From Gemmatimonadales bacterium (lineage in GTDB: Bacteria; Gemmatimonadota; Gemmatimonadetes; Gemmatimonadales; GWC2-71-9): a DNA stretch of 62,288 nucleotides. Shown here in pieces: positions 36,138 to 46,858 of this stretch. How positions within the stretch are numbered: position 1 is the first letter of the stretch; each line of letters begins with the position of its first letter. A model generated the notes under the pieces. That model was not told the DNA's origin. It worked only from the letters and a program-made list of their open reading frames with translations, and ran no database searches. The stretch lies in the NCBI GenBank assembly GCA_038205305.1, contig JBBRBZ010000005.1, forward strand, positions 1-62,288. Direction: 5' to 3'. Made by a program: the position numbers and the translations under genes.

Positions 36138-36491
36138 TCAGGGAGCGACGATCCGGTTGCTGCCATCGACGTGCACGACTGTCGGCGCAAAACTCGGCAG
36201 CTCCGGCCCATCCAAGTCGGCGAAGGTCATGAGGATCAACAGGTCGCCGGGCATGCCCAGCCGTGCGGCCGCACCATTCAACTGCACCACTCCGCTGCCT
36301 GGCGCCCCCGTGATCAGGTAGGTGGTGAGGCGCAGTCCATTGTTCACGTTGACGACATGGACCTGCTCGTACTCGAGCATATCCGCCGCGGCCATCAGCT
36401 CCGCATCGAGTGTGAGCGAACCCTCGTAGTTCAGATCGGCGGAGGTCAGGGTCGCGCGATGAATCTTGGACTTCAGCATGCGACGGCGCAT
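36138..36491 (-). CDS. panD: Aspartate 1-decarboxylase
   Basis: [20 protein letters not shown]. Confidence 0.96.
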
Positions 36492-36492
36492 C

Positions 36493-37353
36493 TCACAGAC
36501 CTTTCTGGCCAAAGATGATGTTGTCGATCAATCGCGTGGATCCCACCCGAGCCGCGACCGCCATGATCGAGCCGGCGACCACCGCATCGGCCGGCAGCAT
36601 GCGGGCGCCATCCACCACCGCAATATAGTCCGTGACGATGCCGGGGGCCCCGGCGAGCACGGCCTCCGCGAATGCATGCAACACGGCTGCGTCGCGCTCG
36701 CCGCGGGACCAGCCCTGCGCTGCCGCCCGCAACGCTGCGGAGAGCGCCCGAGCCGTGACACGCTCCGAGGCGCTCAGGTAGACGTTGCGCGAACTGAGCG
36801 CGAGTCCATCCGCCTCTCGCACCGTCGGCACCATTGACAATTCCACCGGAATGTTCAGCTGCTCGATCAGCTGCCGCACCAGCGTCACCTGCTGGATGTC
36901 CTTCTGGCCGAACGATGCCAGCTGCGGTTGGATGATGTTGAAGAGCTTGGCGACCACCGTCAGCACGCCGTCAAAGTGGCCCGGTCGAATCGCCCCTTCC
37001 CACAGATTCGCCGTCGCGCCGCCGACAATCCGCAGCTCGCGACCGGCGCCGTACATCTCCTCCACCGTAGGAGCGAAGAGCAGGTCCACTCCGCGTGCGG
37101 CCGCGAGGGCGACATCGCGCGCAAGGTCTCGAGGATAGCGATCGAGATCCTCCCCGGCCGCGAATTGCAAAGGGTTGACGAAGAGGCTCAGGACCACCAG
37201 GTCGGCACGGCGCCTCGCGTCGTCGACCAGCGCAAGATGCCCGTCGTGCAGCGCCCCCATCGTGGGGACGAGCCCAATCCGGCGGCCGTCGCGCCGGGCA
37301 GGGGCGAGGAAGGCACGGACGCTATCGACCGTCGAGAGCTGCCGCATCGTCAT
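36493..37353 (-). CDS. panC: Pantoate--beta-alanine ligase
   Basis: [37 protein letters not shown]. Confidence 0.96.
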
Positions 37354-38160
37354 TCAGTCGAAACTGTGCGCGTCGTCGGGAAATTGCCCGGAGCGCACGT
37401 CGGCCGCATATGCGCTGACGGCGGATCGCACCGTGCCCGCGAGTTCAGCGTATCGCTTGAGAAACTTCGGCGCAAAGGCGTCGTTGAGTCCGAGCATGTC
37501 ATGCAACACCAGCACCTGACCGTCACAACCGTTGCCGGCACCGATGCCGACAGTGGGAATGCGCACCGTTGCGCTGATTTTCGCCGCCAGGGAACGGGGG
37601 ACGAGCTCGAGCACCAACGCGCTCGCACCGGCCTCCTCCAGCGCCAGTGCATCAGCGAGCAGACGCTCAGCGGCTGCGGCATCCCTGCCCTGCACCCGGT
37701 AGCCGCCGATGGTGTTCACCGACTGAGGCGTCAGTCCGAGGTGACCGACCACGGGAATGCCCCGATCCACCAGCGTGCGAACCGTCGGCGCCATCACCAC
37801 ACCGCCTTCGAGCTTCACGCCGTCGCAGTCGGTTTCCGCCATCACGCGGCCGGCGTTACGGATCGCCTCGGCTTCGCTCACCTGGTAACTGAGAAACGGA
37901 AGATCAACCACCACGAGCGCACGAGTGGTTCCCCGACGCACACTCGCCGCGTGATAGATCATCTGGTCCAGCGTGGCGCTGAGGGTCGACCTCCGCCCCG
38001 CGAGCACTTGATTCAACGAGTCGCCCACCAGCAGCACTTCCACCTCGCCACTGTCGAGCAAATGGGCGAAGAGCGCATCGTAGCATGTCAACATGACCAG
38101 CTTCTCGCCGGCGGCCTTGCGAACGGCCAATTCGGGCATGCTCAGTGGACGGTCAGCCAT
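37354..38160 (-). CDS. panB: 3-methyl-2-oxobutanoate hydroxymethyltransferase
   Basis: LTCYD, LVGDS, VKLEGG, HLGLTPQ, GIGAG..CDGQVLV. Confidence 0.96.
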   Translation of the reverse strand: MADRPLSMPELAVRKAAGEKLVMLTCYDALFAHLLDSGEVEVLLVGDSLNQVLAGRRSTLSATLDQMIYHAASVRRGTTRALVVVDLPFLSYQVSEAEAIRNAGRVMAETDCDGVKLEGGVVMAPTVRTLVDRGIPVVGHLGLTPQSVNTIGGYRVQGRDAAAAERLLADALALEEAGASALVLELVPRSLAAKISATVRIPTVGIGAGNGCDGQVLVLHDMLGLNDAFAPKFLKRYAELAGTVRSAVSAYAADVRSGQFPDDAHSFD

Positions 38161-38569
38161 GGGACTCCATTCGGGCAATCTCGGACGCCCAGAACGGGCG
38201 GTCGCGAAGCCCCGGGTGCGGGAGTACAAGGTCGGGTAGGTCGCACATCAGGGTGCCGAAACGCACCAAGTCCAAGTCGAGCGTACGCGAGGACCACTTG
38301 GTAGAACGCCGCCGCCCGGCGAGCCGTTCCACATCATGGCAGAGGGAGAGCAGCCTCCGCGCCGGTAGGGTGGTCCGGACCAGCACCATCTGATTGAGAT
38401 ACGCAGGCTGATCCAGCCCGCCAAGGGGCGACGTCTCCTCGACCTCGGAGGCGGCGAGGAGCTCGACCTCAACCGCCGCGGCCAGCTCGGTTCGAGCGAA
38501 GGCCAGCAACCCGGCGCGATCCCCGAGATTGCTGCCGAGCGCGATATAGGCCGTGACCGAGAGTTTCAT
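38153..38569 (-). CDS. folK: 2-amino-4-hydroxy-6-hydroxymethyldihydropteridine diphosphokinase
   Basis: YIALGSNLG, YLN, RTLDLD, LPHP. Confidence 0.93.
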   Translation of the reverse strand: MKLSVTAYIALGSNLGDRAGLLAFARTELAAAVEVELLAASEVEETSPLGGLDQPAYLNQMVLVRTTLPARRLLSLCHDVERLAGRRRSTKWSSRTLDLDLVRFGTLMCDLPDLVLPHPGLRDRPFWASEIARMESHG

Positions 38570-39357
38570 GCCGTGTCGAGGGCCGATCGCAATTCGCCGA
38601 GGAACCGAGCGGCGCCGGCCACGCCATGGCTGCCGAGCGCCTCAACCAGGGCACTCCCCACCACGACGCCGTCGGCGAGTCGCGCGACCGTTGCGGCCTG
38701 GGCCGGTGTCGAGATGCCGAACCCCACGGCAACCGGCAGGCTGGTCGCCGCCCGCACGCGCTGCACCGATTCGCCGAGGTCCCCTGCCAGTGCCGCCGAG
38801 GCACCGGTGACGCCCAAGCGCGCGACCAGATACACGAACCCCTGGGCCCCGGCGACGGCCTGGCGAATGCGGCCGGCCTGCGACGTCGGGGCAACGAGTC
38901 GAATCAGGTCGAGCGGCGATTCGCGGACCGTCTCCTCGATGGCGAGATCTGCCCCGGCTGGCAGGTCGGTCAGCAGGAGGCCAGCCACACCGAGCCCCGC
39001 AGCATCCTGCAGCAACCGCTCGACGCCGTACTGCAGCACCGGGTTGAGATAGGAGAAGAGCACGACCGGGCGACCGAGGTCCGCGCGGTCGATGAGATCG
39101 AGCGTGCCCGTGAGCGTCATCCCGTTGGCCAGCGCCCGGAAGGTCGAGCGCTGGATGGTGGGGCCGTCGGCGAGAGGATCGCTGAAGGGCACGCCGACTT
39201 CGATGACATCACTGTGCTCCGCCGCCATCCGCAACGCGGCGAGTGAGTCCGGAATCGTGGGAAATCCGGCCGTGAGATACGGCACCAATCCGCAGCGCCT
39301 GGCGTCGCGAAGGGTGGCCCAGGTGCGGTCGAGCCGCGATTCAGATGAAGTAGTCAC
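38566..39357 (-). CDS. trpA: Tryptophan synthase alpha subunit
   Basis: YLTAGFP, EVGVPFSDPLADGPTIQ, GFGIS, DGVVVGSA. GTG start at 39357 inferred. Confidence 0.93.
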   Translation of the reverse strand: MTTSSESRLDRTWATLRDARRCGLVPYLTAGFPTIPDSLAALRMAAEHSDVIEVGVPFSDPLADGPTIQRSTFRALANGMTLTGTLDLIDRADLGRPVVLFSYLNPVLQYGVERLLQDAAGLGVAGLLLTDLPAGADLAIEETVRESPLDLIRLVAPTSQAGRIRQAVAGAQGFVYLVARLGVTGASAALAGDLGESVQRVRAATSLPVAVGFGISTPAQAATVARLADGVVVGSALVEALGSHGVAGAARFLGELRSALDTA

Positions 39358-40792
39358 CGACGACGAGACCGTACCGGTCGGGTGAGGTGACCTTGACGAT
39401 GCTTCGGGGATAGGAACCGTCCGGTGACGGAATGGAGAGATCAACCAGCTGTCCCGGCGCGGGAATACGCCCGCCGGTTGCATCAATCGCCATGCGGACG
39501 ACCGGACGATTCAGTTGTTCCGGGTCGGGGCTGGGGCCGGCGACGATAGCCACTTCGAAGGTATCGAGGATGACGCACGTCCCCACTGGATAAATCCCGA
39601 GCATGTTGATGAGCGCCTTGACGAGCACCGGGTCGTAGCCCCGGCCGCGTTTGAGCCACATCTCGCGGAGCACCTCTTCCGCCTCCCACGGCTCCGTCTG
39701 GTAGACGCGCCGCGTCGTCGCGGCATCGTAGCCGTCGGCAAGCGCGACCAGTCTGGTGAACAATCCCAGGCGGCGAGGCCGGATTGGGCGGGGATAGCCG
39801 CTGAGGTCGATTTTCATATGGTGCTCATGCGCGACCAGGATGGCGCGATAGGGCAGTTCCTCGCCCTCGCGCATCTTGAAAAGCGTCAGCGTCCCGAGCC
39901 AGGTGTGCGACTGCAACGCGCGCCATTCCTCGTCCAACAGCGCGCCCTCCTTGTTGAGGAGCGCGGTGTCGAGTCGCGCCTTGCCGATGTCATGCAGCAG
40001 GGCCGCAAGTCCGAGATCGTAGAGCTGGAGCCGATCGAAGTTGAGCCGTTTCCCGAGCGCCACGGCGAAGATGCAGACGTTCACCGAGTGCGTAAAGGTG
40101 TATTCGTCGTAGTCCCGCAGGGTGGTGAGGCCGGTGATCGAGAGTTCGTTCTCCATCACCTGGTCGACGATGAGCTGGATGGCCCGCTTCAGCCGACGCG
40201 CGTTGGGAGAGCGGCCCATCCGAACCCCTTGCACCACATCGCGCGCAGCATTGACACCGTGCGCATAGGTGCGCTTGGCGCGCTCGAGCGCCTCGTCCCC
40301 ATCGCCGCCCTCGCTGGCCCCGCTGGTTTCCCCCACGGTTTGCACCGCGAGACGCACGATATCCGCCTTCTGCATCCGCTCCCGGAGGAAGTCGATCCGT
40401 TCCTCCGGCTCGAGATCCGCCGGCACGTCCCCGAGCGCCGAGAGAAACGCCTGCCATTCGCGCCGCATCACCCCGTCCTCGATCCGGAGCATCCCGATCC
40501 CGGCACCCTTCATCAGGGAAACGAATCCGCTGAAGGCCGCGAAATTGTCGAGGCCGAGGCGCAGTCGGGTCTTGTTGATGAAGATGAAGTCGCCCGACAG
40601 GCTGATCTCAACGACGCCCTCGAGACTGCAGAGCGCGACCGCGTGCCCGAGCAGGTCATCGAGCGCACGCTGCACCGTCGTGTTCTCGACCGGATACAGC
40701 TTCAGCGAGCGCTGGGTGCTGTGAATGGCGATCAACAGCGACCGGCCGGCCTGCCGGAGCAATTGGTCGTCGGCGGTGGTGGGGGTCGTCAA
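39341..40792 (-). CDS. HD-GYP domain protein (putative cyclic-dinucleotide phosphodiesterase) with an unnamed N-terminal domain
   Basis: DEYTFTHSVNV, LLHDIGK, EHHMKIDLSGYP, ADGYDA.TTRR.Y. TTG start overlaps the HEAT gene stop. Confidence 0.85.
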   Translation of the reverse strand: MTTPTTADDQLLRQAGRSLLIAIHSTQRSLKLYPVENTTVQRALDDLLGHAVALCSLEGVVEISLSGDFIFINKTRLRLGLDNFAAFSGFVSLMKGAGIGMLRIEDGVMRREWQAFLSALGDVPADLEPEERIDFLRERMQKADIVRLAVQTVGETSGASEGGDGDEALERAKRTYAHGVNAARDVVQGVRMGRSPNARRLKRAIQLIVDQVMENELSITGLTTLRDYDEYTFTHSVNVCIFAVALGKRLNFDRLQLYDLGLAALLHDIGKARLDTALLNKEGALLDEEWRALQSHTWLGTLTLFKMREGEELPYRAILVAHEHHMKIDLSGYPRPIRPRRLGLFTRLVALADGYDAATTRRVYQTEPWEAEEVLREMWLKRGRGYDPVLVKALINMLGIYPVGTCVILDTFEVAIVAGPSPDPEQLNRPVVRMAIDATGGRIPAPGQLVDLSIPSPDGSYPRSIVKVTSPDRYGLVVGDYFI

Positions 40793-42501
40793 GGCGCCCA
40801 ATCCCTGAGCACGGAGTTGGCCGCGCTGCGGACGACCGGCTCCTTGTCGGCAGTGAACTTGTCGGCGAGGAGTCGCGCCTCGAAGGTGCGGATCTTCCCG
40901 AGCGCGAAGAGTGCACAGGCCCGCACTTCCGGAGACTCCTTCCGGCGGAACAGCCCCCGGGGCTCGAGCAGGTCCGCCAGTCGGGTGACACCGCCCGATC
41001 CGGCGAACTCGCCATATGCTTCGAAGAGTGTTCGGCGCTCGCTGCGTTCCCAGCCGTGATCCTTGCCGTCGAAGATCAGTCCTTCCAGCCGCTGGACCAG
41101 GCCGCCACCGCCACCCCGCTCCATCAGCACGGTGAGTGCGGCCTGGCGTACGCCACGATCGGGGTCGTCGAGCACCCGCTCGATGGCGCCGATCGACGTC
41201 GGGGTACCAAAGGCACCGAGGGCGCGGACCCCCGCGAGTTTGACCGCCGGCGAGCCATCGGCGAGGTGCACGATGACGGCGGGAACGAGCGACTGCAGGC
41301 CGAGGCGCACGGCCATCGCGATGGCCGGCTCGATCGTCTCCGGAGGGCCGTTCGCCAACAGGTCACCGAGGGTCTGGGGCTGCGCCCGCACCAGGGACTC
41401 CACACTCGGCTCCAGGGCTCGTCGGACCGCCGGGTCCATGGTGCGGCCGAGGTGACCGAGGACCAGCGGCAGCGCGACAGGCTTCAGCTCGCGAAGCACC
41501 TCGCCGATGTCCTCCTCCGGCGGCCTGGTGGTCGGATCTTCCAGCACCCGGAACAGTTGCTCGAGAATGTCGGGCTGGGAGAGCCGATGCTCGAAGGAAA
41601 GCACGCCCGTGCGCAACTCCTCGTCCAGCTGGTCGGCGCGACCGGCGATCACCCGCAACTCGCGCAGCACCTTCGCCACGGCACGGAAGCCGCCGGTCGC
41701 CAGTTCGGCGGGGAGGATCAGCTCGAAGAGCTCGAGCACCTCGCGGCGCACGGCGGGATCGCGCTCGCGCTCGAGCGTGTCGAGCAGGGCGTCAAGTGCG
41801 GAATCACGAATGTCGCGCGAGTACTCCTCGACCAGATCGCTCTGGATGAGGCGCACTTCCGATTCCTCGAGGAAATACGGCGTGGCGTCATAGTCGTTCA
41901 TGTCGACGATGCCCGACGGAGCGCCGCCATCATACGACTGATTCGGCGGAGCCGCCTTCGCTGTTTCCACCTCGACGCGCGCCGACCCCTTCAGCGGTCC
42001 CGTGCTCCGAACCGGTGACTCCTGCAGGAACTCGATCCCCTCCCCCATCACTTCGATGAATGTGTAGGCGATCAGCACGAACTCCTCTTCCCAGAGGAGC
42101 GTGAGCAGATCATCCGTCGCATCAGCCGGGAGCATGCGGACCCGATTGAGGGCGTCGAGAAATCGGGCGATCTCCTCCGTCTCCACACCGGGGAGGAGCG
42201 TCAATCGCCGCAAACCGTCCTTGTAGAGTTGCCACGCCAGGCCATCCGTCTGCGCCGCCTGCTGGAGGACCGTCACCCCCTCCCAGAGGATGGTCGACTC
42301 TTGGATGTCGAGGACCAAGCGGCCCGTGATACCCCAGACGGGGTGGAACGCGTCCGTGACGGAGTCCAGCCCGCGGCGATACATCGGGTTGTTCGGCAGG
42401 TACATCTGCAGGGCCCGCTGCCCCTTGCCGAGCGCGCGCAGCAGGTCCTCCACGACTCGGACGTCGAGTTCCGTCGCCGCCGGACGGGTCGGTGCGGTCA
42501 C
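40789..42501 (-). CDS. HEAT-repeat protein with an unnamed N-terminal domain
   Basis: C-terminal HEAT/PBS-like repeats ([46 protein letters not shown]). GTG start overlaps the trpB stop. Confidence 0.82.
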
Positions 42502-43700
42502 GCCATCGCTCCGAGGGTGGCGGCAACGTGAGCAACGTCCTTGTCGCCTCGACCGCTGACGCAGAGCAGCACCACATCGCCGGCGGTCCACCGTCCGCGC
42601 GAGCAGAGGATCCACGCGATCGCGTGCGAGGTCTCAAGGGCTGGGATGATCCCCTCCAGTTGCGAGAAGCGCTGAAAAGCATCGAGCGCCTCGCCATCGT
42701 CCACCGCGTGGTACTCGACGCGCCCGGTGTCACGCAGCCAGCTGTGCTCGGGGCCCACGCCGGGGTAGTCGAGTCCGGCCGACACGGAATGCGCGGGCGC
42801 CACCTGCCCATCGGCATCCTGCAGCAGGTAGGAGAGCGAGCCGTGCAGCACCCCGGGGCGCCCGGCCGACAGCGTCGCGCTGTGGCGCGAGGTCGCCACC
42901 CCTTCCCCGGCCGCTTCGACGCCGACGAGTTCCACCGACGGATCGCCCACGAAGCCCGCGAAGATGCCCATCGCGTTGGAGCCACCGCCCACGCACGCCA
43001 CGACCGTCTTCGGCAGGTCGCCCACCCGCTCGATCACCTGGGCCCGCGCCTCGACACCGATCACGGACTGGAAGTCCCGCACCATGCGGGGATATGGGTC
43101 GGGGCCGACCACCGATCCGATGATGTAGTGCGTGGTGGGCACGTTCGTCACCCAGTCCCGCAGCGCCTCATTGGTGGCATCCTTGAGCGTGCGGGTCCCC
43201 GACTCCACCGGCACGACCGTCGCGCCCAGCAGTTTCATCCGGTAGACATTCAGCGCCTGCCGCTCCACATCCTCGGAGCCCATGTAGACCACGCACTCGA
43301 GCCCGAAGCGCGCACAGATCGTCGCCGTCGCCACGCCATGCTGTCCGGCGCCCGTTTCGGCGATGATCCGATGCTTTCCCATCCGGCGCGCCAACAGCGC
43401 CTGGCCAATGGTGTTGTTGATCTTGTGCGCGCCGGTATGGTTGAGATCCTCGCGCTTGAGGAGGACGCGCGCGCCGACGATTTCGCTGACACGCGGCGCC
43501 TCGCTGAGCGGCGAAGGGCGGCCGACAAAATCCCCGAGCAGTGCGTGGAACTCGCCCCAGAACTCCGCATCGTCGCGCACTCCGTCGTACAGCGCGGTCA
43601 GGTCATCGAGTGCAGCGACCAGCGTCTCCGGCACGTACCTGCCACCATAGGGGCCAAATCGCCCGGCAACGGCAGTCTCAGGTGGGAGGGAGTGCGTCAC
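42498..43700 (-). CDS. trpB: Tryptophan synthase beta subunit
   Basis: [50 protein letters not shown]. Confidence 0.97.
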
Positions 43701-44325
43701 GAACCTGCTCCATGAAACGGGCCAATTTGACCGGGTCCTTGATCCCCGGTGCGCACTCTACGCCGGAACTTACATCGACAGCATCCGGCCCGACGACCTC
43801 GATTGCCCGAGTCACCGACTCCGGCGCCAATCCCCCCGCCAACGCCATGCGGGCCCCCAACCACTCGACCCGCAGCCTCCGCGCCGCCGCGAGGTCGAGG
43901 CCCGACCGCACTCCGCCGGCCCGGTCAGGGTGCGCCGGCTCCACCAGCTGAACATCGGCGGTGCCGGGCCCACCCTGAAGGTGACGCGCCGTCGCGCCAC
44001 CCGGTTCGAGGGCATGCACCTGCCACACCTCCAATCCGGCTCCGTGCAGCCGTGCGACGTCTCCAGCCGCCGCAGGCCGGTGCAACTGCACACCGCGAAG
44101 CCCCGCCTCGGCACTCATCTCGAGAATGGTGGCGACGCTCTGGGACTGATAGACGCCTATCACCGGAACGCTCCCGGCGGCATGCACGATGGCTTGCGCC
44201 TGCCTGACGCTGATCACCCGGGGGCCGCCCGCGAAGACCACTCCCAACCGCCACGCACCAAGCGATACGGCCAGGGCAGCATCCTCGGGTCGGGTCAGCC
44301 CGCAGATCTTGACGTCAACGGGCAT
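43678..44325 (-). CDS. trpF: Phosphoribosylanthranilate isomerase
   Basis: VKICGLT, VQLH, LAGGL, DVSSGVE..PGIKD. Confidence 0.92.
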
Positions 44326-45100
44326 GGCGCGGCACCGAGCTCCATTCCCGCACCCGAGCTGTCGGATCGCCAGCCGAAGCGAGCGCCGTCCCGATGAGCA
44401 CGGCATCGGCACCGGCCTGCGCAGCCGTGGCCACGTCGGTGACACTCGTCATCCCGCTCTCGGCCACGGCGATGGTCGTCGCGGGAATCCGTGCGAGCAG
44501 CTCCCAAGCCGCCGGGGTATCCATGGCGAAGGTGTCGAGATTGCGGGCGTTCACCCCGACCACCCGGGCCTCGGTCGCCAGCGCCCGATCCAGCTCCTCG
44601 CTGGTGTGGGCTTCGACCAAGGCGACCAAGCCCAGCTCATCCGCAAAGTGAAGGAGTCGCCGTAACGTGGCGTCGTTGAGCGCGCGCACGATGAGCAGGG
44701 CGGCCGAGGCACCGCTGGCACGCGCCTCGAGCACCTGCAGTTCGTCGAGGATGAAATCCTTGCGGAGGACCGGGCACCCAACCACCGCGACCACGGCCTC
44801 CAGATCGCCGATCGCGCCCCCGAAATGAGGGCCCTCGGTGAGCACGGAGATCGCCGCCGCTCCGCCGAGTTCGTAGGCACGTGCCAGCACAGGCGGATCC
44901 AGCGCCTCGTTGATGGCGCCCGCCGAGGGGGAGCGCCGCTTCACCTCGGCGATGACCCGCACGGTCTGGCCGCGCAGCGCCCGGGCAAAGTCGAGCGGCA
45001 CCGGCCTCGCCAAGGCGGCGGCCTCGAGGGCCCTGCTGCGGGCCCGCAGGGCTGGCAGGGTGGCCCGGGCGGCACGGAGAATCTCTTCGAGCTGGGGCAT
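44315..45100 (-). CDS. trpC: Indole-3-glycerol phosphate synthase
   Basis: IAEVKRRSPS, SVLTE, LRKDFI, GVNARNL, AESG. Confidence 0.95.
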   Translation of the reverse strand: MPQLEEILRAARATLPALRARSRALEAAALARPVPLDFARALRGQTVRVIAEVKRRSPSAGAINEALDPPVLARAYELGGAAAISVLTEGPHFGGAIGDLEAVVAVVGCPVLRKDFILDELQVLEARASGASAALLIVRALNDATLRRLLHFADELGLVALVEAHTSEELDRALATEARVVGVNARNLDTFAMDTPAAWELLARIPATTIAVAESGMTSVTDVATAAQAGADAVLIGTALASAGDPTARVREWSSVPRHAR

Positions 45101-45101
45101 C

Positions 45102-45149
45102 TTGCTCTTCGGTTTCCCTTCGGGTAGCTTCAGTTCGGTGTCTCTTCGC
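45102..45149 (+). promoter_or_regulatory. Predicted lexA sigma70 promoter with two candidate LexA operators
   Basis: TTGCTC(45102-07)-N17-TAGCTT(45125-30); TTCGG-N6-TTCGG at 45108-45123 and TTCGG-N6-TTCGC at 45134-45149. Confidence 0.6.
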
Positions 45150-45169
45150 CATCAATCCGGGAGCCGGGC

Positions 45170-45778
45170 GTGACGCTCACTCGCAAGCAACACGAAATCC
45201 TCGACTATCTCACCGCAGCCATCGGTCGCAACGGCTACGCCCCGAGTTTCGAGGAAATTGCCGAACAGTTCGGGTACCAGTCTCTCGCCACGGTCCATGA
45301 GCATCTCAGCAACCTGGAGCGGAAGGGATACATCCGCCGAGGCTACAATGAGAGCCGGGCCATCGAGGTGCTGCCGCCGCGCGGTCACACCGGCGCGAGT
45401 GAAGTCCCTCTGCTCGGTACGGTGGCGGCCGGCATGCCCATCGAGTCGATGATGAGCGGCGAAGTCGTCTCCGTCCCCGACAATATGCTGCCTCGACGCG
45501 GTCCGAACTATGCGCTGCGGGTTCGGGGCGAATCGATGATCGACGAACAGATCCGCGATGGCGACCTGGTCGTGGTCAACGGGCGCGACAGCGCGGACAA
45601 CGGCGAGATGGTGATCGCACTCGTCAGTGGGTCGGAAGCGACCGTCAAACGTTTCTATCGCGAACCGGGCGGATGGATCCGACTGCAACCGGCCAACCCG
45701 ACCATGCGGCCGCTGCGGTATCAGGAGAGTGACGTGCTGATTCAAGGAATCGTCGTGGGCGTCATCCGGCGCTACTAG
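45170..45778 (+). CDS. lexA: SOS repressor LexA
   Basis: LTRKQ..IL...GYAPSFEEI, VAAG.P cleavage site, GESM (Ser), ATVKRF (Lys). Confidence 0.96.
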   Translation: MTLTRKQHEILDYLTAAIGRNGYAPSFEEIAEQFGYQSLATVHEHLSNLERKGYIRRGYNESRAIEVLPPRGHTGASEVPLLGTVAAGMPIESMMSGEVVSVPDNMLPRRGPNYALRVRGESMIDEQIRDGDLVVVNGRDSADNGEMVIALVSGSEATVKRFYREPGGWIRLQPANPTMRPLRYQESDVLIQGIVVGVIRRY

Positions 45779-46817
45779 CCCGTACCAGCGCCTCCAAACG
45801 CGCGAGGGCGGCACCCCGATCCAATGCCTCGCGCGCCAGCTCCACCGCCTGTTCGAGGGACGAAACCTCCCCACTGACATACACCGCCGCCGCCGCATTC
45901 AGCAGCACGGCCGCCCGCAGCGCTGGCGCGGCCCGCAACGGGTGCGCCAACAACTCCAAGATGCGAGTTGCGTTCTCTGCTGGCTCCCCACCTTCCAGTC
46001 CGTCAAGCGAGGAGGCGGCCAGCCCGAAGCGCGCCGGCTCGATCCGCCATTCGTGCAGCGCCCCATCACGAACTTCCCAGACACGGGTCGCACCGACTGG
46101 CGCAATCTCATCAATGCCGATTTCGCCATGCACGACCATCGCGTGCGTCGTCCCGAGCCGGGACAATGCTTCCGCCATGACCGGGGCGCGGGTGAGGTCG
46201 GCAATCCCGACCACCTGTCGGCCGGCACGTGCAGGGTTGGCCAGCGGTCCGACGAGGTTCATGATCGTCGGCACGCCGAGTTCGCGGCGGACGGCGGCGA
46301 CGTGGCGCATCGCTGGGTGGTAGATCGGCGCGAAAAGAAAGACGAGCCCGACGCTTCCCAAGATCGCGCTCGCGCGATCGGCGTCGAGGTCGATGTTGAC
46401 GCCGAGCGATTCCAGCACATCCGCAGAGCCGGAGCGCGAAGTGAAGCTCCGGTTTCCGTGCTTCGCCACCGGCACACCCGCCCCGGCGGCCACGAATGCT
46501 GCGGCGGTCGAGACGTTCAGCGTGCGGATAACACCGCCGCCGGTGCCACAGGTGTCCACCAGCGACGTGGGACTGCCATGTGCAACGACCTGCATTGCGC
46601 CGCGAAGTGCCGCCACCGCGCCAGCAAGTTCCGAGGCGGACTCTCCCCGGGCACGCAGGGCCAGCAGTAGGCCGGCGATGGATGCGGCCGGCGCGCGCCC
46701 CGCCATGATGACCTCAAAGGCAGCACCAGCTTGCGCCTCGGAGAGCACGCCGCCGTCGGCAAGATGGCTGAGGGCTTCGCGGAGCGAGTCCGGCACGGCG
46801 TCGGCGGAAGGCTGCAT
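45762..46817 (-). CDS. trpD: Anthranilate phosphoribosyltransferase
   Basis: DTCGTGG, NVST, KHGNRS.TSRSGSADVLE, GPLANPA. Confidence 0.95.
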   Translation of the reverse strand: MQPSADAVPDSLREALSHLADGGVLSEAQAGAAFEVIMAGRAPAASIAGLLLALRARGESASELAGAVAALRGAMQVVAHGSPTSLVDTCGTGGGVIRTLNVSTAAAFVAAGAGVPVAKHGNRSFTSRSGSADVLESLGVNIDLDADRASAILGSVGLVFLFAPIYHPAMRHVAAVRRELGVPTIMNLVGPLANPARAGRQVVGIADLTRAPVMAEALSRLGTTHAMVVHGEIGIDEIAPVGATRVWEVRDGALHEWRIEPARFGLAASSLDGLEGGEPAENATRILELLAHPLRAAPALRAAVLLNAAAAVYVSGEVSSLEQAVELAREALDRGAALARLEALVRASSAG

Positions 46818-46828
46818 ATCTGATGGCA

Positions 46829-46858
46829 AGCGTAGGACATCGGCGGGCCTCCTGTCAA
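46829..46858 (-). promoter_or_regulatory. Predicted sigma70 promoter for trpD
   Basis: TTGACA(46858-53)-N18-TACGCT(46834-29), ending 11 nt before ATG 46817. Confidence 0.55.

Follow-up and report, generated by a model that had tools for sequence, protein, structure and literature searches.

We identified an undescribed domain that two neighbouring genes have in common in a Gemmatimonadales bacterium (contig JBBRBZ010000005.1 of assembly GCA_038205305.1), where positions 1 to 62,288 (nucleotides, nt) formed the window that was analysed. Both genes lie on the minus strand. The first encodes a HEAT-repeat protein of 570 amino acids (aa) with a GTG start (HEAT1; 40789..42501, defined by its open reading frame (ORF) and translation), and the second an HD-GYP protein (HD1; 39341..40792) of 483 aa when read from the TTG at 40792, or 486 aa from the TTG at 40801. 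As judged by profile comparison, the first ~150 residues of HEAT1 and HD1 are true paralogs. We refer to this region as the N-domain. The catalytic half of HD1 appears to be that of an ordinary HD-GYP family member, and what seems new here is a widely distributed input domain on an HD-GYP enzyme that also occurs in its apparently obligate HEAT partner. For the pair itself, the data support a conserved genetic unit that spans three phyla. On balance, and with only modest confidence, we favour the view that the two genes make up one signalling unit, in which HEAT1 would bind HD1 through the paralogous N-domains and the HEAT solenoid would steer the phosphodiesterase.

The resemblance between the N-termini of these adjacent proteins had been put forward in a preliminary description of this DNA on the basis of an alignment by eye, and both peptide stretches quoted there were found in the translations. 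From the sequences of HEAT1 and HD1 alone the alignment is not provable: BLASTP gave an E value of 0.18 with 24% identity over 212 residues, the best alignment being the co-linear N-terminal one. Results from hhalign with shallow profiles of 120 close orthologs each (E 3e-4, probability 40%) and from a first hidden Markov model (HMM) search of the same genome (E 0.29 and 1.2) were suggestive only. These were superseded by diverse profiles built from more distant copies. A profile of the four N-domains present in the genome (A2; from HEAT1, HD1, and the proteins HEAT2 and HD2 of a second pair described below) was run against 1.84 billion cluster representatives and matched 5009 proteins at E <= 1e-3, with 622 at E <= 1e-10. 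From 149 retrieved matches, single-class profiles were made for 50 HEAT-type N-domains, for 28 HD-type N-domains, and for the first and second tandem copies found in 22 long proteins. When the HEAT-type and HD-type profiles were aligned with hhalign, they matched with a probability of 98.5% (E 1.4e-15) over 151 columns, and the tandem copies matched both classes at 98.6-99.1%. As controls, unrelated profiles gave E 0.16-0.5, the best of 20 column shuffles gave E 0.072, and a reversed profile gave E 0.59.

When the HMMs of each class were searched reciprocally against the genome's 21,984 ORFs of at least 80 aa, the results were consistent with this outcome. The HEAT-only profile retrieved HEAT1 (6e-72), HEAT2 (2.3e-19), HD1 (5.2e-6), and HD2 (1.2e-3) with the next ORF at 7.8, and the HD-only profile retrieved HD1 (1.5e-74), HD2 (5.5e-25), HEAT1 (2.9e-6), and HEAT2 (1.2e-3) with the next at 0.12. 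Each single-class profile thus recovered only the four expected ORFs, and the paralogy proposed by eye can be regarded as established by these diverse profiles. The idea that the two genes have no functional link, with a chance or low-complexity resemblance and an accidental adjacency, can draw on the pairwise BLASTP value and is refuted to the point of being negligible by the profile-profile match with its clean controls and by the retention of the pair in 45 of 45 cases across three phyla.

Searches for a known family gave no name to the N-domain. Over the first ~215 residues, neither HEAT1 nor HD1 had a Pfam match above cut-off, NCBIfam returned no match that added to either N-terminus, and 10 diverse N-domains matched no Pfam family even at E <= 10. 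A profile of these 10 domains reached at best E 0.045 among PDB sequences, for a designed protein, and the PDB sequence matches of the full proteins were limited to the catalytic domain of HD1 and the HEAT repeats of HEAT1. Structure searches with models of both N-domains were negative as well: Foldseek against the PDB returned nothing at E <= 1e-3, with GAF chains appearing in its rows at E 0.2-0.8 and a template modelling (TM) score of about 0.15-0.2, and the ESM Atlas gave no usable match. VIA-align reached a best Z of 6.6 in a wide search and 6.7 in a second look, in lists that were filled by the helical hairpin of residues 1-61, with no search of the strand-rich part on its own. Because of this last point we do not claim a new fold. 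By the searches made, the N-domain has no name in Pfam-A or NCBIfam and no counterpart in the PDB. In agreement with the preliminary description, which had called the domain unnamed, the HD-GYP protein devoid of REC or GAF inputs, and the pair uncharacterised, no characterised family was matched, REC, GAF, and PAS had no Pfam or NCBIfam match at E <= 1 in either protein, and searches in the full text of open-access papers and bioRxiv yielded no description of an HD-GYP and HEAT pair or of the N-domain.

The AlphaFold2 (AF2) models of the two N-domains were confident and had the same order of elements, namely a long helical hairpin, a three-stranded sheet, a helix, a strand, two helices, and one or more final strands. 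For HEAT1 (mean predicted local distance difference test (pLDDT) 89.4, predicted TM score (pTM) 0.83) the helices were at residues 11-33, 39-56, 88-94, 110-123, and 132-139, and the strands at 62-66, 70-73, 76-80, 97-102, 144-152, and 155-161. For HD1 (pLDDT 85.9, pTM 0.73) helices were placed at 9-35, 41-61, 84-100, 113-124, and 132-145, and strands at 64-69, 72-75, 78-80, 104-107, and 151-154. The input alignments mixed both classes, so that the agreement of the models is partly built in and not fully independent. Together with hhalign and the conservation over 90 paired domains, the model placed the N-domain of HEAT1 at residues ~10-161 (42019..42474, minus strand). For HD1, the model, HMM, hhalign, and conservation placed it at residues 9-154 as numbered from 40801 (40340..40777, minus strand). 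Across the 90 paired N-domains the sole invariant residue was a tyrosine in the hairpin turn (Tyr34 in HEAT1, Tyr36 in HD1). Other common residues were an arginine (Arg29/31, 69%), a glutamate (Glu110/115, 80%), two glycines, and Asn38 of HEAT1. A crude Kyte-Doolittle scan gave no clear sign of an N-terminal membrane anchor in either protein, with maxima of 1.87 from residue 393 of HEAT1, within a HEAT repeat, and 1.68 from residue 394 of HD1.

Beyond the N-domain, HD1 matched Pfam HD_5 with 58.5 bits against a cut-off of 27.2 (residues 229-392) and Pfam HD with 39.8 bits against 22. Its catalytic domain (39626..40117, minus strand) was delimited by Pfam and by alignment to the solved HD-GYP proteins PmGH (4mcw) and V-cGAP3 (5z7c), with whose metal-binding residues and GYP motif those of HD1 line up. 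The catalytic residues of HD1 are H238, H270-D271, K274, H299, H327-H328, D332, G335-Y336-P337, D356, and D359, and the set H, HD, K, H, HH, GYP, and D..D was intact in 43 of the 45 HD partners examined, HD1 included. HD1 therewith has what an active HD-GYP phosphodiesterase needs and is a predicted enzyme. Its substrate would by default be cyclic di-GMP (c-di-GMP), 3'3'-cyclic GMP-AMP (3'3'-cGAMP) also being possible. There were 10 GGDEF matches in the genome, so c-di-GMP is made in this organism. The genome also held 10 HD_5 matches in eight ORFs, and the N-domain was present in only two of these ORFs. HEAT1 matched Pfam HEAT_2 with 61 bits against a cut-off of 27.7 (residues 378-459) and Pfam HEAT with 34.6 bits against 23.5, the best-scoring repeats being encoded by 41125..41370 on the minus strand. 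In searches of PDB sequences it matched alphaRep and HEAT chains. The whole of residues 230-570 showed conservation among orthologs and with the C-terminal part of long GGDEF-AAA_16-N-N-HEAT proteins (N denoting the N-domain), and a profile of the HEAT1 C-terminus (heatC) matched these tandem-domain proteins at E 1e-6 to 8e-16. In HEAT1 and HD1 themselves, Pfam gave no match to AAA_16 or GGDEF.

We then considered how widely the two genes occur together. With profile A2, the N-domain was found in 225 of 301 sampled Gemmatimonadota genomes, a tally that takes in four unpublished ones. It was present in all 125 genomes of the organism's own family and in 64 of 69 of the next, and in 0 of 19 for some families. 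The matches were listed in full for 35 genomes sampled from the class, of which 25 genomes held 76 N-domain matches. Of these matches, 66 formed 33 same-strand pairs 1.5-2.2 kb apart, 2 were a tandem in one ORF, and 8 were single. Two of the singles turned out to be pairs under a wider profile, two were orphan N-HEAT genes, and four, in two genomes, were left unchecked, two of these starting within 1.4 kb of a contig end. These counts include the unpublished genomes G097 and G302 (one pair each) and G303 (two singles). The 267 relatives of HEAT1 that were collected are, where a source name was given, all labelled Gemmatimonadales or Gemmatimonadota.

For closer inspection 45 pairs were assembled, comprising 40 fetched from other genomes, the 2 of the genome itself, 2 from a metagenome-assembled genome (MAG) labelled Acidobacteria, and 1 from Corallococcus interemptor. 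Among the first 20 fetched pairs, 13 came from the organism's own family and were chosen with both matches listed; the 7 of the next family were picked by their HEAT match only. In all 20 an N-HEAT gene was followed by an N-HD-GYP gene. The second 20, drawn from seven families, likewise all had an N-domain and an HD domain in the downstream gene, with an upstream gene of the HEAT1 (pair-1) type in 11 and of a longer (pair-2) type in 9. The order N-HEAT to N-HD-GYP thus held in 45 of 45 pairs, and among 29 further loci an HD1 gene followed HEAT1 in 27 of the 27 that reached far enough, six of the genomes being in common with the first 20 pairs. The HD gene had an in-frame ATG, GTG, or TTG that overlapped the upstream stop codon by exactly 4 nt in 36 of the 45 pairs. 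The start lay within -4 to +4 of that stop in 40 of 45, and one pair was without a candidate start. In the window, the overlap takes the form of the TTGA junction that the preliminary description had reported and that the sequence confirmed at 40792-40789 (feature 40789..40792, minus strand), where the TTG at 40792-40790 shares bases with the HEAT1 stop TGA at 40791-40789. Given the 4-nt overlap in homologous pairs and a database copy of HD1 with 483 aa, TTG 40792 is more likely to be the HD1 start than TTG 40801.

Five genomes were sampled outside the Gemmatimonadota. The MAG labelled Acidobacteria carried HEAT, HD, HEAT, and HD genes consecutively (two tandem pairs, L166 1937-10786) with the N-domain in all four; a gene for a type I phosphodiesterase / nucleotide pyrophosphatase (Pfam PF01663, E 1.8e-42) lies after them. 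Corallococcus interemptor AB047A had one pair with the N-domain in both proteins. A profile of 10 sequences (A6) found the N-domain in 66 of 101 Myxococcota genomes, the phylum to which Corallococcus belongs, and in 31 of 101 from the phylum of the Acidobacteria-labelled MAG, and the matches listed in both phyla were again same-strand pairs, about 1.5-2.3 kb apart. The adjacency and coupling claimed for the window thus extend well beyond this genome.

The genome itself contains a second pair on another contig (C12; L005 6549-9610, minus strand), consisting of HEAT2 (646 aa; Pfam HEAT_2) and HD2 (374 aa; Pfam HD_5) with the same N-terminal pattern in both, and with the ATG of HD2 overlapping the HEAT2 stop as ATGA. 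In HD2 the residue equivalent to K274 is M, HH has become HQ, and both Asp equivalents are lost, and HD2 is probably inactive as an enzyme. The pair-2 HD partners in 9 other genomes had their catalytic residues intact. Downstream of the genome's own second pair, at a distance of about 2.3 kb, a 421-aa ORF (L005 2982-4247, minus strand) looks by eye like an EAL-type domain followed by an HDOD-like region and would be one more gene related to c-di-GMP in the vicinity of pair 2. A quick maximum-likelihood search with 106 N-domains placed all 45 HD-type domains on one side of a branch, with a Shimodaira-Hasegawa-like approximate likelihood ratio test (SH-aLRT) value of 83. On both sides of this branch the same clades were mirrored, with 33 rows each for pair 1 (support 98 and 99) and 10 rows each for pair 2 (support 99 and 97). 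Such mirrored trees suggest that the N-domain was duplicated once, early, and that both genes have since been inherited and duplicated as a unit.

N-domains were also found in twos within single proteins that carry diguanylate cyclase domains. A Pfam scan covered 89 of the 149 retrieved matches. It took in every one of the 37 that reach at least 700 aa, along with 52 out of 112 shorter proteins; most of the 60 unscanned matches were short fragments. Among the 37 long proteins, 25 had GGDEF and AAA_16 domains, ten were HEAT-only, and two had no family. In each of the 25 GGDEF-AAA_16 proteins, local domain calls located a tandem of two N-domains at about residues 650-950; 22 of these proteins had HEAT_2 as well, which was absent in the other three (1007-1113 aa). 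Tandem N-domains also occurred in eight HEAT-only proteins of 696-1150 aa among the top matches. The 52 shorter matches included 26 with HEAT_2, 3 with HD domains, and 23 with no family at E <= 1e-5. Full-length GGDEF-AAA_16-N-N-HEAT genes were present in 3 of 151 sampled Gemmatimonadota genomes (L136 in G063, L137 in G142, and L138 in G049; about 1430-1480 aa, with homology to HEAT1 in the HEAT region) and absent from the genome studied here. No HD-GYP gene was found within 1.5 kb of these full-length genes, and none of 80 loci picked by GGDEF motifs from many phyla had an N-domain. In the tree, the tandem copies clustered with each other on the HEAT side (support 97), which argues that the tandem arose by internal duplication and not by fusion of a HEAT and an HD gene. 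Two adjacent N-domains beside a HEAT solenoid nevertheless appear to be a recurring unit attached to c-di-GMP enzymes. One candidate for a fusion of HEAT and HD-GYP, the metagenomic protein P0337 (1079 aa), was ruled out, since its Pfam HD match at 242-354 lies between two N-domains. Its order of N, HD, a second N, and a further HD-like match would correspond either to two N-HD units in tandem or to two merged gene calls.

How might the pair work? HD1 would be a cytoplasmic HD-GYP cyclic-dinucleotide phosphodiesterase with the ~150-residue alpha/beta N-domain as its input, and HEAT1 and HD1 would be made together through the 4-nt overlap of start and stop. Their N-domains would associate, forming in trans the N-N-HEAT unit that is found in cis elsewhere. 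This association is proposed on indirect grounds, namely the fixed gene order, the 4-nt overlaps, the mirrored trees, and the tandem N-domains in single chains. The HEAT solenoid would act as a sensor or scaffold for a ligand or protein and would control how active the phosphodiesterase is or where it is located, and the signal might pass to the catalytic domain along a long helix that joins it to the N-domain of HD1 and that AF2 predicted with a pLDDT of only 54-69 (residues 168-194; 40220..40300, minus strand). Of the two-protein signalling system that the preliminary description had envisaged, the part that stands is the conserved genetic unit, with its order, overlaps, and mirrored trees, while the mechanism is inferred: physical contact between the N-domains, which partner controls the other, what is hydrolysed, and which signal is received. 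Complex prediction with the N-domain pair (residues 1-165) gave ipSAE values of 0.00 and 0.01, with no controls run, and is counted as evidence neither for nor against binding. A broader and more speculative extension, which we regard as possible and nothing firmer, is that the N-domain is a widespread signalling domain that works in pairs, in trans or in cis, and links HEAT sensors to both the synthesis and the breakdown of c-di-GMP. The Tyr, Arg, and Glu residues might then form a common site at the interface for the nucleotide or another ligand, and in Gemmatimonadales the unit in the trp operon might tie c-di-GMP turnover to tryptophan supply.

Several observations weigh against a signalling unit built on N:N contact. 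Pairwise identity between the N-domains is only about 24%, and the branch that separates the HD-type from the HEAT-type domains is only moderately supported (83, in a quick search). The cis tandem appears to be an analogy only and not a Rosetta-stone fusion. The invariant Tyr34/Tyr36 with the frequent Arg and Glu would fit a ligand pocket equally well as an interface. Moreover, orphan N-HEAT genes in G004 (L168 1877-3538, 554 aa) and G007 (L169 1866-3476, 537 aa) have no N-HD-GYP gene within about 2 kb, so the HEAT partner can stand alone. Finally, the catalytic residues are degenerate in HD2 and in the Corallococcus partner, and hydrolysis may therefore not always be the output.

Some of these points would suit an arrangement of parallel sensors, in which the N-domain of each protein binds a small molecule, possibly a nucleotide, without N:N contact, and the two genes are linked by a common signal. 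In its favour, the N-domain is divergent apart from one invariant Tyr and the frequent Arg and Glu, its fold is mixed alpha/beta as found in many sensor modules, it is present on both c-di-GMP-making and c-di-GMP-breaking enzymes, and orphan N-HEAT genes exist. However, it leaves unexplained why N-domains are so regularly doubled (the 76 matches comprise 33 pairs, 1 tandem, and 8 singles), and likewise the fixed order, the 4-nt overlaps, and the mirrored trees. Moreover, no known ligand-binding fold was matched, the GAF chains appearing only at the Foldseek values given above. We consider this arrangement rather unlikely, and we are about equally sceptical of one in which the N-domain homodimerises the HD-GYP enzyme and the HEAT copy merely competes, thereby inhibiting it, or tethers the enzyme to a target so that it signals locally, with no sensory signal transmitted. 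Such an adaptor or decoy is favoured by the dimeric state of HD-GYP enzymes such as PmGH and by the typical role of HEAT solenoids as scaffolds between proteins, and the degenerate HD partners in pair 2 and Corallococcus would fit a dispensable catalysis with binding as the part that matters. Among the present data, only the cis tandem N-N-HEAT proteins separate it from the proposed signalling unit; they suggest a stable N:N unit beside the solenoid instead of competitive exchange.

HD-GYP proteins are the less understood of the two classes of c-di-GMP phosphodiesterases, and their regulation is mostly obscure. The RpfG-type proteins of Xanthomonas are REC-HD-GYP phosphodiesterases. Like HD1, they carry a regulatory domain N-terminal to the HD-GYP catalytic domain, and protein-protein contacts are part of their signalling. 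HD1 differs in that it lacks REC and has no Pfam match in residues 1-228, and its proposed input would be a co-translated partner with a paralogous domain instead of phosphorylation. PmGH, V-cGAP3, and Bd1817 (3tm8) are solved HD-GYP proteins with non-REC N-terminal regions. The catalytic domain of HD1 aligned to 5z7c at E 1.5e-23 and to 4mcw at 4.8e-19 with all metal ligands and the GYP motif kept, but only HD1 residues ~232-401 align to these proteins, and the N-domain profile and models matched none of them. The DUF3391-HD-GYP proteins (PF11871) resemble HD1 as cytoplasmic HD-GYP proteins with an uncharacterised N-terminal domain. The match of DUF3391 to HD1, however, was below cut-off (14.3 bits against 27.8, E 0.063) and fell on the linker (residues 142-202; profile positions 100-134 of 136), and none of the 10 diverse N-domains matched this family at E <= 10. 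We know of no HEAT partner for the DUF3391-HD-GYP family. A further related group is that of the GGDEF-AAA_16(STAND-like)-N-N-HEAT proteins of ~1400 aa, which are also c-di-GMP enzymes and whose N-domain and HEAT region are homologous to those of HEAT1; they differ from the pair in having both N-domains in one chain and a diguanylate cyclase with a P-loop nucleoside triphosphatase as output in place of HD-GYP. In the excerpted text of one paper, GGDEF and HEAT are mentioned only in other contexts (PMC7159879).

The N-domain defines a large HD-GYP family, present in about two thirds of the genomes sampled from Gemmatimonadota and Myxococcota, and would be an addition for family databases. Its presence in both this family and STAND-type diguanylate cyclases points to a regulatory module that serves the synthesis as well as the breakdown of c-di-GMP. 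The cassette is present in a cultured species, Corallococcus interemptor, and Myxococcus xanthus is a genetic model. The excerpted text of an earlier study, which also names RpfG-type enzymes, counts five HD-GYP proteins in M. xanthus and reports that, pmxA aside, the single mutants were without a phenotype (PMC4877007).

The preliminary description mentioned neither the second pair in the genome nor the connection with diguanylate cyclases, nor that the first pair lies in a trp operon. On the minus strand of the window (38566-46829) the order of genes is trpD, trpC, trpF, trpB, HEAT1, HD1, and trpA. The stop codon of trpB (42498..43700), directly upstream, overlaps the HEAT1 start as GTGA, and trpA (38566..39357), directly downstream, has a probable GTG start at 39357 with a 17-nt overlap with the 3' end of HD1. 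Of the first 20 fetched loci, which come from two families, 12 had the pair flanked by trpB and trpA and 8 did not have that arrangement; among 25 further loci, trpB was upstream in 14. The Acidobacteria-labelled and Corallococcus pairs have different neighbours. For Gemmatimonadales, the site of the pair between trpB and trpA suggests that second-messenger turnover may be linked to amino-acid supply, and placement in the trp operon could couple expression of the phosphodiesterase to the supply of tryptophan. By eye, the translations also show a LexA-like repressor gene (45170-45778, plus strand) that is divergent from trpC/trpD. Downstream of trpA there is, again by eye, a panD-panC-panB-folK-like run (36138-38569, minus strand), which looks like ordinary housekeeping context.

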